A stretch of 33,113 nt of DNA from a virus (taxonomy: Duplodnaviria; Heunggongvirae; Uroviricota; Caudoviricetes): IMG/VR virus record IMGVR_UViG_2879770953_000003, one strand, 5' to 3'. Shown piece by piece: positions 6,001 to 9,000 of the stretch. Made by a program: the position numbers. How positions within the stretch are numbered: the first letter of the stretch is position 1; every line of letters starts with the position of its first letter.

Positions 6001-9000
6001 GGCCAACGCCCATAATGCGTGCACTGGCGCGACATCCGACGCCATTCATGGCCATATCAATGATTTTCTGGTGCGTACCGGGCTGAGAGGCGGTGTAAGT
6101 GAACTGTAGTTGCCATGTTTTACGGCAATGAGAGCAGAGATAGCGCTGATGTCCGGCAGTGCTTTTGCCGTTACGCACCACGCCTTCAGTAGCGGAGCAG
6201 GAAGGACATCTGATGGAAATGGAAGCCACGCAAGCACCTTAAAATCACCATCATACACTAAATCAGTAAGTTGGCAGCATTACCAGGGCGGTAATGAAAA
6301 TGACTGAATTAACAAAAGAACAATTAATCGAAGAAGCCAAATTAAAAATAGCGATTACGAAATGCCACCCCAATTCAGGGATGGCGCGAGTAGAGGGCGA
6401 GTTATTCAAAATTGCACGGGCATCGCTGGAAGCAGAGCCGATAGCGTGGCGATATCGCTACGTGAAAAAAGGTGTTATGGACTCTCAGGGGGAGTTGTGG
6501 GTTGGTGACTGGAAATATGTACCGAAAAAAGAGGATTGTAACGACAGGCCGAACTATGAAATTCAGGCCTTATTCACTGCCCCACCAGTCCCGGTTACAT
6601 CAGAAGAACTGGTTAAAGCTGTGCACTTTTATGAACAACTAAAACGCGAAAATCCACCAGCATCCGGCAACCAGATTAATGGGTTAACTATGTCGGTTAA
6701 ACGACCAGCCAACTGAAAAAGCGGAAACCTGATTATAGGTTGCCAGATAAGGCAATAAGCTACCTGGCGCGGAACGGACTGATAAGTATGGGGAATGTTT
6801 TACGATGAGTATTTAGACTAAAGAGTTTGTAACGCTATGTAAGTGATTTTTTCTGGTTTAGATATTTATATGTCCGGCCAAATTGAGGTGTGTTTAAATG
6901 TTATTGCACATTGATTGTAGGGGGAATAATGAAAAACGCATTGCAGTTTTTGTTTGTTGCGTTCTGGTTGTTCGCATCATGTATGCCCATCATCTTCACA
7001 GCAAGGTATATGGAAAAAATTGATGTTTTGATATTAATGTTTGGACATATAAATGCCCTTTTTTTAGGGGTGTTCATGGCGGTCATGTGCATTGAATACT
7101 GGCGGTAAATACAGCGAACGCTATTGGTTTAGTTGGATATTTACTGTGCCGGACAAAAACGGTTTGCAGGGAAATCTTAGTTAAGTAGAATGACTGCGGG
7201 TGCTTGAGGCTATCTGTCTCAGGCATGAACACCAAAAGGCAGATAGAGAAAAGCCCCAGTTAACATTACGCGTCCTGCAAGACGCTTAACATTAATCTGA
7301 GGCTCAATCCATGCTGAACACATGTAGGTTAGCCTCTTACGTGCCGAAAGGCAAGGAGAAGCAGGCTATGAAGCAGCAAAAGGCGATGTTAATCGCCCTT
7401 ATCGTCATCTGTTTAACCGTCATAGTGACGGCACTGGTAACGAGGAAAGACCTCTGCGAGGTACGAATCCGAGCCGGCCAGACGGAGGTCGCTGTCTTCA
7501 CAGCTTACGAACCTGAGGAGTAAGAGACCCGGCGGGGGAGAAATCCCTCGCCACCGCTGATGTGTCAGGCATCCTCAACGCACCCGCACTTAACCCGCTT
7601 CGGCGGGTTTTGTTTTTTCTGGTCGTTCTGGTTTACAATCCATCCGTCAGCCTGAACAACTGGCACCTGCTGCGCCAGCAGAGAAAACAGATGGCGCACG
7701 ATACCAAATTTTACAATTCGGATAACTCTGCCGCCCCTGCCAGCAGGCACGGGCGGCGTTCTCATGCATTCAAATCTGACTGGTATCAGCACGACCCCTG
7801 CACCGAAGAACAGGCTGAATGGCTGATTCAGCGCTACCGCAGACACGGATACGAGATTAAGAAAGCCCTCAGTCTCGATTATCGTCACTGGATAATCTTC
7901 GTCAGGCTCCCTTATTCCGAACGGCCACCGCGTCCGTCCTGCACATTCCAGCAACGGATCTGGAGGTAATGTGCGGGTATTACTTCGACCTGTTCTGGTT
8001 CCGGAACTCGGGCTGGTGGTCCTTAAGCCAGGCCGTGAATCCATGCCGGTATTCCACAATACCCGGGTACTGGTGGAGCCGGAACCGAAAAGCATGCGTA
8101 ATCTGCCGTCCGGGGTCGTTCCTGCCGTTCGCCAGCCGCTGGTGGAAGACAAAACATTGCTGCCGTTTTTCAGTAACGCACGGGTGATTCGTGCTGCTGG
8201 TGGTGCTGGCGCATTGTCTGACTGGCTGTTGCGCCATATGAAATCCTGCCAGTGGCCACACGGCGATTATCATCACAGCGAAACCGTCATTCACCGTTAT
8301 GGTACCGGCGCAATGGTGTTGTGCTGGCACTGCGACAACCAGTTGCGTGACCAGACATCCGAATCACTCGAGCAACTTGCTCATCAAAACCTGTCAGCAT
8401 GGATGATTGACGTCATCGGTCACGCAATAAGCGGTACGCAGGAGCGTGAATTATCTCTGGCTGAATTATCCTGGTGGGCGGTCCGCAATCAGGTGGCGGA
8501 CGCGCTACCGGAAGCGGTATTACGTCGTTCGCTGGGGTTGCGTGCGGAAAAAATCCGCTCAATGTACCGTGAAAGCGACATCGTGCCGGGAGAGCAGACC
8601 TCCACCAGCATACTGAAGCAGCGCACAAAAAATCTTGCGCCGCTGCCTCACGCCCACCAGCAACAGAATCCACCACAGGAAGAGACGGTGGTCAGCATTG
8701 CCGTTGATCCGGAATCTCCGGCTCAGTATCTCCAGCGCCAGAAACCACAACGGGAAGAGATGCCTGTATACACGCGCTGGGTAAAAACGCAGAAATGCAT
8801 GACGTGTGGCAATCAGGCAGATGATCCGCACCACATCATTGGTCATGGACTGGGAGGGATGGGAACAAAGGCTGACGATTTGTTTGTTATTCCGCTGTGT
8901 CGTAAATGCCATAACGAACTACACGCCGGGGTAAAAGATTTTGAAGAAAAACACGGTAGTCAGTTGTTGTTGCTGATTCGTTTTTTAATGCACGCGAGAA

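Follow-up and report, generated by a model that had tools for sequence, protein, structure and literature searches.

A predicted complete hok-mok-sok locus of the hokW-sokW type in a prophage remnant lacking its immunity region

The window analysed here, a stretch of 33,113 nucleotides from a virus of the class Caudoviricetes (IMG/VR record IMGVR_UViG_2879770953_000003), carries a locus that is almost certainly, in identity and mechanism, a complete hok/sok-family type I toxin-antitoxin system, belonging to the already known lambdoid hokW-sokW or 'full-length hokD' type. The sequence elements of such a locus, their pairings and the homology to an experimentally validated locus were all found in the window. 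By analogy, the locus most likely works as hok/sok of plasmid R1 does, and the explanation as a whole, in which a complete hok/sok locus with an R1-like way of working is carried as a passenger, is very probably correct. Its present status is a more balanced matter, as we give about even odds to its being a silent, still-armed passenger and not a stabiliser kept by selection. What had been flagged as an orphan toxin in a preliminary description can now be presented as an annotated hok-mok-sok locus in which each regulatory element has its coordinates.

The toxin gene, hok (7368..7523, + strand), encodes a product of 51 aa, MKQQKAMLIALIVICLTVIVTALVTRKDLCEVRIRAGQTEVAVFTAYEPEE, and is preceded by the Shine-Dalgarno (SD) sequence AAGGAGA at 7353..7359. 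The product matched the Pfam family HOK_GEF (PF01848) with 81.2 bits (cut-off 22), which places it among the Hok/Gef-family toxins of about 50 aa, and the ORF matched PHROG 251 ('MokW-like host killing') with 112.7 bits; together with the Rfam match of the leader described below, these results bear out the hok-type toxin locus of the preliminary description. The ORF list also contained a mok ORF of 70 aa (7311..7523, +), which starts upstream of hok, overlaps it in the same frame as an N-terminal extension and has an SD of its own, GAGG, at 7299..7302 (+), 8 nt 5' of the mok ATG. The same layout of mok and hok is annotated for mokW of 933W and mokC of E. coli K-12.

Codon 36 of hok specifies Ala, where the prophage of E. 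coli FDAARGOS_944 and HokD of K-12 have Thr; this is the sole protein difference, and T36A is also the only difference within the locus from the FDAARGOS_944 relative. Residue 36 is variable across the Hok family, and the identical 51-aa protein with Ala36 occurs in many other contigs; a literature search for loss-of-function data at the equivalent residue of R1 found none. A TACG motif at Tyr47 (7506..7509, +), read off the coding strand, corresponds to the position at which hokD is known to undergo A-to-I editing by TadA (Tyr to Cys). The DNA at this motif is identical to that of K-12 hokD, and editing at the Tyr47 position has been reported for hokC, hokD and hokE (PMC5630033).

Within 6900..7800, a consensus scan identified a single promoter-like site on the + strand, TTTGCA-17 nt-TAGAAT (7163..7191; 9 of 12 matches), which aligns with the promoter regions of 933W hokW, K-12 hokC and hokB, and R1-type hok. 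The 5' end of the hok mRNA is predicted at 7198, 7 nt past the -10 box, a position also indicated by alignment with R1-type mRNAs. The terminator scan of the same interval likewise yielded one site, a stem-loop at 7592..7609 followed by TTTTGTTTTTT, and the intrinsic terminator AACCCGC-TTCG-GCGGGTT with its T run (7592..7619, +) confirms the downstream terminator noticed earlier. The predicted full-length hok mRNA, of about 420 nt, extends from a conserved 5' end, GGGUGCUUGAGG, to the T run of the terminator (7198..7619, +), with a minimum free energy (MFE) fold of -172.9 kcal/mol (z = -6.6). These boundaries correct the earlier extent of the locus (7110-7620, with a leader of about 200 nt): a leader is indeed present, with a length of about 170 nt from 7198 to the hok ATG at 7368, and 7110..7162 lies upstream of the promoter, outside the transcript. 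In the 3' UTR, a stem-loop GGCGGGGGA-GAAA-UCCCUCGCC (7531..7552, +) appears in both the full-length and the truncated folds and, judging by R1 data (PMC9841398), is likely the 3' end protector of the processed mRNA.

All cis elements of the plasmid R1 hok/sok model are present in the window locus. The leader (7198..7373) matched Rfam RF01794 with 118.9 bits (gathering cut-off 59; E = 9.5e-27) over model positions 1-157 of 157, including all three consensus helices, as befits a leader of this family. Its first element is tac (translational activator), GGGUGCUUGAGG (7198..7209, +), which is paired in the full-length MFE fold with the fold-back inhibitory element fbi, CCUCAACGCACCC (7573..7585, +), and in the isolated leader with ucb; both pairings are backed by covariation with hokB. 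The tac/fbi duplex comprises 12 bp and a one-base bulge and has an energy of -21.5 kcal/mol, a value reached by 4 of 500 shuffled UTRs. The offset of fbi from the stop codon is the same as in hokB, where compensatory changes from U-A to C-G and from G-C to A-U were observed, so that the long-range 5'-3' pairing was found in the MFE fold, in the duplex and in the compensatory changes alike. As MAFFT misaligns the 3' UTRs of distant paralogues, duplex folding took the place of column counts in testing this pairing.

The alternative pairings of the model, together with the metastable 5' hairpin, were also found. The ucb or anti-SD box, AAGCCCC (7251..7257, +), covers the mok SD in the closed full-length fold and pairs with tac in the leader fold, where the tac/ucb stem has a z of -3.8; this helix is 94% paired over five paralogues, with one compensatory (double-sided) change. 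In the open hairpin (7299..7336; -13.4 kcal/mol, z = -2.2), the mok SD region is instead paired with the downstream complementary box dcb, AGCCUC (7331..7336, +), a pairing that is also part of the Rfam consensus structure. The loop of this hairpin, CUGAACA (7314..7320, +), is the predicted first contact for the 5' end of Sok: it contains a CUGA motif of the YUNR type and is complementary to Sok nt 1-6 (GUUCAG). A U-turn role of YUNR-type loop motifs was reportedly described by Franch et al. in 1999. The 5' hairpin, formed by tac and the sequence just downstream (7200..7226, +; -16.9 kcal/mol, z = -4.6), was matched in stability by none of 200 shuffles, and a metastable hairpin of this kind has been described for R1 (PMC9841398). 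Folding of the leader in isolation, as well as the Rfam consensus structure, demonstrated the helices of the open form; in the MFE fold of the 3'-truncated mRNA the 5' hairpin was formed and the tac/ucb stem was not chosen, and thus the basis for the refolding step is the R1 model together with the isolated-leader fold.

The antisense partner, missing from the first reading, could be placed at 7249..7319 on the - strand, as a Sok-type RNA gene of 71 nt with 70/71 identity to the annotated sokW of 933W, the single difference being located in the hairpin loop. The predicted structure of Sok (-30 kcal/mol, z = -5.0) consists of a single-stranded 5' tail of 14 nt, a long hairpin and a U tail (U4); the 5' tail has the sequence GUUCAGCAUGGAUU, complementary to the mok start region. 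The Sok promoter, TTGCCT-17-TAACCT (7326..7354, -; -35 at 7354..7349, -10 at 7331..7326; predicted start 7319), is identical in sequence to the 933W sokW promoter, the -10 box of which has been inactivated experimentally by changing TAACCT to GAGCCG (primers YO-421/422; PMC8621323). A generic sigma-70 scan with a threshold of 9/12 gave no minus-strand promoter; the Sok promoter has only 7 of 12 consensus matches and is therefore missed by such a scan. As the validated sokW promoter also reaches 7/12 and is identical here, we rejected this result as evidence against Sok. Sok is predicted to be encoded in cis, from a promoter that lies within the leader. The earlier suggestion that the leader be searched for the Sok promoter and fold-back elements thus proved fruitful, with the Sok promoter, tac, fbi, ucb, dcb and mok all recovered, and the lack of an antisense promoter or of conserved leader elements, which was to have marked an inactive remnant, does not apply to this locus.

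For the working of the locus, we infer transcription, RNA half-lives, processing and toxicity along the lines of the R1 model. The promoter at 7163..7191 would give rise to a stable mRNA of about 420 nt, the nascent form of which would be held closed by the 5' hairpin during synthesis. In the completed mRNA, tac at the 5' end would pair with fbi at the 3' end and ucb would cover the mok ribosome-binding site, and in this closed full-length form the mRNA would be accessible neither to translation nor to Sok. Slow trimming from the 3' end, as far as the hairpin at 7531..7552, would then remove fbi, after which tac would pair with ucb and the mok SD would move into the SD/dcb hairpin, an open form allowing translation of mok and, coupled to it, of hok. 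Normally, the 71-nt Sok, transcribed from 7319 to 7249 under the promoter at 7354..7326, would block this translation, with its single-stranded 5' tail binding the loop and the mok start region and RNase III destroying the duplex. Should Sok synthesis stop, the leftover hok mRNA would be translated, and the 51-aa Hok would insert in the inner membrane, with the result that the cell is killed or arrested.

Among known loci, hokW-mokW-sokW of 933W/Sakai prophage 5 (AF125520; Takada et al. 2021, PMC8621323) shares 93% nucleotide identity with the window locus over about 440 nt. The hok promoter is conserved, with an identical -10 box (TAGAAT), and no difference was seen in tac, ucb, the mok start, the Sok promoter, the hok SD or fbi; mok is in frame in both loci, and 46 of the 51 residues of Hok are shared, with differences that include the C-terminus (TAYEPEE and VDYESEK in the window and 933W, respectively) and residue 36 (Ala in the window, Thr in HokW). 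With its near-identical leader and Sok and its location in a lambdoid prophage, the window locus belongs to the hokW-sokW subtype. The two diverge past fbi, where the window has the intrinsic terminator of hokD, absent in 933W; moreover, the 933W locus lies outside the nin region, adjoining a large late-region ORF, whereas the window locus lies between early genes and DUF968-rusA-Q, and the prophage hosting the latter is not inducible, unlike 933W/Sp5. For hokW-sokW, a sokW promoter mutation, the antitoxin activity of Sok and the toxicity of HokW have been demonstrated, and post-segregational killing is not among the results; the locus could be deleted from Sp5 without a growth defect, and the role demonstrated was assisting lysis upon induction (PMC8621323).

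The hokD gene (relF) of the Qin cryptic prophage of E. coli K-12 has 50 of 51 Hok residues identical to those of the window. The coding DNA, 3' UTR, fbi and terminator are near-identical, and the same DUF968 and Q genes follow downstream. However, the homology begins only at the hok SD, and relBE takes the place of the leader, the mok start, tac/ucb and the Sok gene. An identity as the K-12-type hokD/relF, truncated and fused to relBE, was considered and rejected, as the window keeps the full leader. Judged by its sequence, the window locus is the un-truncated form of hokD, and the name 'hokD' fits the coding sequence only. Genes of the window type are named hokD by NCBI PGAP in E. coli genomes, a label that hides a complete toxin-antitoxin system, unlike the truncated hokD of K-12.

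The founding member of the family, hok/sok (parB) of plasmid R1, has the same elements in the same order: promoter, tac, ucb, mok SD, Sok boxes, dcb, hok SD, fbi and terminator. The Sok boxes occupy the same positions (TTGCGC-17-TATCCT in R1), and the long-range tac/fbi pairing is common to both. On the other hand, the leaders are only moderately alike, the Hok peptides have clearly diverged and the hairpin adjoining ucb is 19 nt longer in the window. In addition, the window locus is chromosomal or prophage-borne and single-copy, while that of R1 is plasmid-borne.

The loss of the immunity region, also part of the preliminary description, was upheld by comparison with a 99.8%-identical prophage of E. 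coli FDAARGOS_944 (L002), whose repressor/cro-like and replication genes are replaced in the window by an IS1 element (5518..6284, -; InsA/InsB matches and inverted-repeat ends). Exact pattern searches map the IS1 flanks to L002 positions 10274 and 19176, and the 8.9 kb replaced (10275..19175) also contain exo, dicB and relBE-like genes. A scan of the GTDB representative genomes for exact matches to the junction of IS1 and prophage gave none. In the early-right gene order, the hok locus has its place in the nin region, which is flanked by the replication genes and by DUF968-rusA-Q, and it is still present because its nin region lay just outside the IS1-associated deletion. In an alignment of the 3 kb around it, 6 positions in 3000 nt differ (99.8% identity) from the relative with intact immunity; the flanks are no less conserved than the locus itself, which indicates that the intactness of the locus reflects a recent deletion and not selection. 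The prophage genes in the window comprise DUF968, RusA, Q, holin, terminase, portal, capsid and tail genes. An IS3-family element interrupts the integrase, an IS66-family insertion adjoins the lysozyme gene, the tail module is interrupted by another IS1, and the remnant carries an ipaH-type effector gene. Two further contigs (L013 and L014) are identical to the window at the hok locus and, together with the ipaH-type gene, CssrB and the number of IS elements, point to Shigella. DNA matching the locus occurs in 4938 of the 5426 complete E. coli genomes.

Against this background, several functions can be weighed for the locus. An addiction or anti-deletion module, in which loss of the remnant would remove the short-lived Sok, leave the stable hok mRNA to kill the cell and thereby stabilise the ipaH-carrying defective prophage, is unlikely, even though every element that post-segregational killing requires is intact. 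With flanks conserved to an equal degree, nothing suggests that the locus was retained by selection; it is single-copy, and with the integrase already disrupted, the main excision route to be guarded against is gone. Furthermore, the deletion of hokW-sokW from Sp5 lysogens caused no growth defect, and the chromosomal hokA, hokB and hokC are reported to cause no post-segregational killing (Pedersen & Gerdes 1999, as quoted elsewhere); published work on hok loci of chromosomes and prophages speaks against strong killing of this kind. An addiction role for the remnant finds no support in the results presented here. Lysis assistance as in Sp5, where induction would remove Sok and Hok would speed lysis and phage release, is the one function experimentally demonstrated for the closest homologue and probably the ancestral role of the locus; nevertheless, it is highly improbable as a present function, as it cannot operate in a prophage with the repressor/cro and replication genes deleted, the integrase split, an insertion next to the lysozyme gene and the tail cut by IS1.

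Defence against phages is quite unlikely as well. In such an abortive infection, a lytic phage would shut off host transcription, Sok would decay and Hok would kill the cell before the phage cycle is completed, a mechanism needing only elements found here, and prophages often carry defence genes. R1 hok/sok on a high-copy plasmid is reported to have lowered the plating efficiency and plaque size of T4, but the effect was small and seen at high copy number, and hok is not enriched near defence systems. A related and distinctly doubtful proposal is that the locus, severed from its natural trigger, would fire only upon global transcription shut-off or DNA loss and so, by countering deletion or through abortive infection, favour the retention of the ipaH remnant in a Shigella-like genome. 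In intact relatives, the locus lies in the early-right operon, downstream of the repressor-controlled promoter; according to this proposal, read-through transcription converging on the Sok promoter could remove Sok upon induction. Conversely, the locus might be an inactive relic that looks intact without killing, a state ascribed to the majority of the K-12 hok loci (four of five reported inactive); several chromosomal hok loci are reported as inactive in killing assays, and T36A is its only difference from the E. coli relative. Yet the K-12 loci carry visible lesions, such as the replaced leader of hokD and an IS186 directly after hokC, of which none is seen here; with the promoter, SDs, ORFs, pairings and Sok gene all intact and the Ala36 allele widespread in other contexts, we consider a relic improbable. 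The silent, still-armed passenger remains the reading that we prefer.

The importance of these results lies mainly in annotation, with little beyond it. A question of some interest, namely what role a toxin-antitoxin system that assists phage lysis plays once its prophage is non-inducible, has already been posed in the literature and goes beyond what sequence alone can answer. On the side of annotation, RF01794 is named 'sok antitoxin', yet its model runs up to and includes the hok AUG and matches the hok strand, indicating that it describes the hok mRNA leader and not the antisense RNA; an Rfam 'sok' match therefore marks the leader strand of hok rather than the antisense gene.

The name CssrC, given to an 'sRNA' of Shigella flexneri 2a 301 (Peng et al. 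2011, PMC3071730), is attached to the same RF01794, which is matched end to end in the window. CssrC was detected by northern blot in S. flexneri 301 as an RNA of about 340 nt and is drawn there as co-oriented with its two flanking genes (PMC3071730), and the RF01794 match on the hok strand of the window is likewise co-oriented with its neighbours. In size and in orientation to the flanking genes, the CssrC band fits a processed hok mRNA. CssrB is located downstream of the hok locus in the same orientation, adjoining the ipaH-type gene, in the window as in S. flexneri 301; the spacing between CssrC and CssrB is 24.7 kb in the window compared to about 17.8 kb in 301, a difference that points to a different strain or IS arrangement.

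The locus encodes a 51-aa Hok-family toxin, MKQQKAMLIALIVICLTVIVTALVTRKDLCEVRIRAGQTEVAVFTAYEPEE, at 7368..7523 (+), which scored 81.2 bits against Pfam HOK_GEF (cut-off 22) and 112.7 bits against PHROG 251 "MokW-like host killing", in agreement with the preliminary description. A 70-aa mok ORF (7311..7523, +) lies in the same frame and starts 57 nt upstream, an arrangement identical to that annotated for mokW (933W) and mokC (K-12). When 6900..7800 was scanned, the sole plus-strand promoter-like site was TTTGCA-17-TAGAAT (7163..7191) and the sole terminator-like site was AACCCGC-TTCG-GCGGGTT followed by a T run (7592..7609, +), which corroborates the downstream terminator noted previously. 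As the promoter is located at 7163..7191 and the Rfam RF01794 match starts at 7198, the leader, initially put at about 200 nt, does exist but is about 170 nt long, and the bases 7110..7162 fall outside it, ahead of the promoter.

The antisense partner, which the preliminary description could not identify, was placed at 7249..7319 (-) by transferring the 71-nt "SokW antisense RNA" annotated in the 933W record. The hokW-mokW-sokW loci of 933W and the Sakai Stx phages share 93% identity with the window locus over approximately 440 nt, and the Sok gene is identical to sokW of 933W at 70 of 71 positions, the lone difference being in the hairpin loop. In the predicted fold of its RNA (-30 kcal/mol, z = -5.0; equalled by none of 200 shuffles), a long hairpin separates a 14-nt single-stranded 5' tail from a U tail; the 5' tail, GUUCAGCAUGGAUU, complements the sequence around the mok start codon. 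The Sok promoter (-35 TTGCCT, 7354..7349; 17-nt spacer; -10 TAACCT, 7331..7326; start site 7319; - strand) has the same sequence as that of 933W, while R1-type hok/sok carries TTGCGC-17-TATCCT at the equivalent place. The generic promoter scan of 6900..7800 did not pick it up because it matches the consensus at only 7/12 positions. In sokW, changing the -10 box from TAACCT to GAGCCG with primers YO-421/422 abolished protection against HokW, and sokW in trans restored it (Takada et al. 2021, PMC8621323); judging from the sequence, the box inactivated in that study is exactly the Sok -10 box of the window.

The RF01794 match (7198..7373, +; 118.9 bits, gathering 59, E 9.5e-27) covers the whole "sok antitoxin (CssrC)" model, which ends at the hok AUG, and lies on the hok strand. 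RF01794 therefore marks the hok mRNA leader and not the antisense gene, and an annotation based on that name would misplace the antitoxin on the hok strand. S. flexneri 301 is the strain in which CssrC and CssrB were defined; there, CssrC appeared as a band of approximately 340 nt and was drawn in the orientation of its flanking genes (PMC3071730).

The fold-back elements are there as well: all elements of the plasmid R1 model (summarised in PMC9841398) are present. In the closed form, the full-length RNA (7198..7619; -172.9 kcal/mol, z = -6.6) pairs the 5' tac element, GGGUGCUUGAGG, with fbi, CCUCAACGCACCC, at 7573..7585, and ucb (AAGCCCC) with the mok SD. The tac/fbi duplex by itself reaches -21.5 kcal/mol, as did only 4 of 500 shuffled 3' UTRs, and K-12 hokB forms the same duplex equally far from the stop codon; the changes between the two (U-A to C-G and G-C to A-U) are compensatory. 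A metastable 5' hairpin (7200..7226, +; -16.9 kcal/mol, z = -4.6) was also found, together with the open-form tac/ucb stem (7198..7257, +; -25.8 kcal/mol, z = -3.8) and SD-mok/dcb hairpin (7299..7336, +), whose 7-nt loop, CUGAACA, is complementary to Sok bases 1-6. When the window, hokW, R1-type hok, hokC and hokB were aligned, the open-form helices were 80% paired across these five paralogues, compared with 33-53% when partners were slid by 1-3 columns, and the tac/ucb helix was 94% paired, with one double-sided change. A 9-bp hairpin with a GAAA loop (7531..7552, +), which forms in both the full-length and the truncated fold, probably shields the 3' end of the mRNA after processing, going by data on R1. 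As the MFE fold of the 3'-truncated RNA is the 5' hairpin, not tac/ucb, the refolding step rests on the R1 model. We infer the canonical hok/sok mechanism from the elements seen in the sequence, from the way they pair and from the resemblance to a homologous locus that has been validated; expression, RNA stability, processing and toxicity are predicted features.

PGAP names this hok gene hokD in E. coli, and the window protein differs from HokD of K-12 and FDAARGOS_944 at residue 36 only (Ala for Thr). At Tyr47, the gene has the TACG motif (7506..7509) that TadA is reported to edit in hokD (PMC5630033). However, K-12 hokD shares sequence with the window only from the hok SD onward and has relBE in place of the leader, mok start and Sok gene, whereas the window carries the complete form; after fbi, the window runs into a hokD-type terminator, where 933W diverges. 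The identical 51-aa protein is encoded behind relBE in some loci and in a full lambdoid setting in others. In two other loci encoding it, L008 and L011, the leader is conserved outside the Sok 5'-tail/target-loop segment, which differs specifically: CTGAACACATG in the window (7299..7336), CTTCACAAACG in L008 (5930..5975) and C--GACACATAG in L011 (5390..5435). These differences may reflect antisense specificity diversifying among co-resident prophage copies.

The locus is an already-known system and an ordinary finding: enrichment of hok in prophages was previously described, and the hokW-sokW subtype is annotated in 933W and was experimentally validated in 2021 (PMC8621323). A 511-nt query matched 79 phage records and 4938 of 5426 complete E. 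coli genomes, 3820 of the 4938 with at least 80% query coverage including the leader.

The prophage, which follows mtfA, tRNA-Asn and tRNA-Ser, is clearly defective. Its integrase is split into C-terminal catalytic (2634..3251, -) and N-terminal (4471..4926, -) fragments by an IS3-family element (3290..4446; 100-aa and 272-aa ORFs), and only the last ~100 codons of the exonuclease gene are left. The bases flanking IS1 (5518..6284) correspond to 10274 and 19176 in the near-identical E. coli FDAARGOS_944 prophage (L002), and the 8.9 kb absent in between comprises most of exo, dicB, ydfABC, a RelE/RelB pair, two HTH regulators placed like cI and cro, YdaT, replication proteins and ead, which confirms the immunity loss described earlier. 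The RelE/ParE-RelB type II pair lies beside the repressor gene (L002 14232..14716); thus, of the two TA systems, only hok/sok survives in the remnant. Further downstream, the lysis cassette is disrupted, since an IS66-family element (11217..15123; TnpA/TnpB-like ORFs and a split DDE transposase, with a nested IS3-family ORF at 13471..14289) sits between the holin (10903..11118) and lysozyme (15099..15521) genes, the latter ORF starting inside the element's end.

The preliminary description proposed an addiction module stabilising the prophage, and we consider such an anti-deletion role unlikely. Only 6 of 3000 positions in 6285..9284, one of them inside hok, differ from the relative with intact immunity, so it is the recent date of the deletion that explains the intact locus, and selection is not demonstrable as the cause. 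Moreover, deleting the locus from Sakai prophage 5 (Sp5) had no effect on growth (PMC8621323), and chromosomal hokA, hokB and hokC are reported to mediate no post-segregational killing (Pedersen and Gerdes 1999). The role demonstrated in Sp5, RecA- and induction-dependent HokW production with faster lysis and doubled phage release (PMC8621323), cannot operate in the remnant. We give about even chances to the locus persisting there as an armed passenger; a function in abortive infection is a slimmer prospect than the anti-deletion role, and inactivity of the locus slimmer again.

Several other features were observed. An AT-rich stretch immediately upstream of the hok promoter contains an unannotated, very hydrophobic 59-aa ORF (6929..7108, +; beginning MKNALQFLFVAFWLFASCMPIIF), for which Pfam and PHROG gave no match and the FDAARGOS_944 annotation has no gene on the identical DNA. 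Four phage tRNA genes (10301..10610, +) lie between Q and the holin gene, namely Lys-TTT, Thr-TGT, Gly-TCC and one with a CAT anticodon, called Met in the window and Ile in the annotation of the E. coli relative. A single 588-aa ORF (20262..22028, +) joins prohead protease (S78) and major capsid domains, which are two separate genes in that relative. A second IS1 transposase ORF (28568..29071), after the tape-measure gene, cuts the tail module, and the prophage apparently lacks its distal tail genes, another mark of its being defective. At the prophage end, an ipaH-type effector gene (30160..31803, -; 547 aa, LRR and NEL E3 ligase domains) adjoins a full-length CssrB sRNA match (31931..32110, +; 230 bits), an association also described in S. 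flexneri 301; this and the IS load suggest a Shigella origin of the window. Near the window end, Rfam IS009 matched at 32867..33070 (+) with 129 bits (gathering 117).
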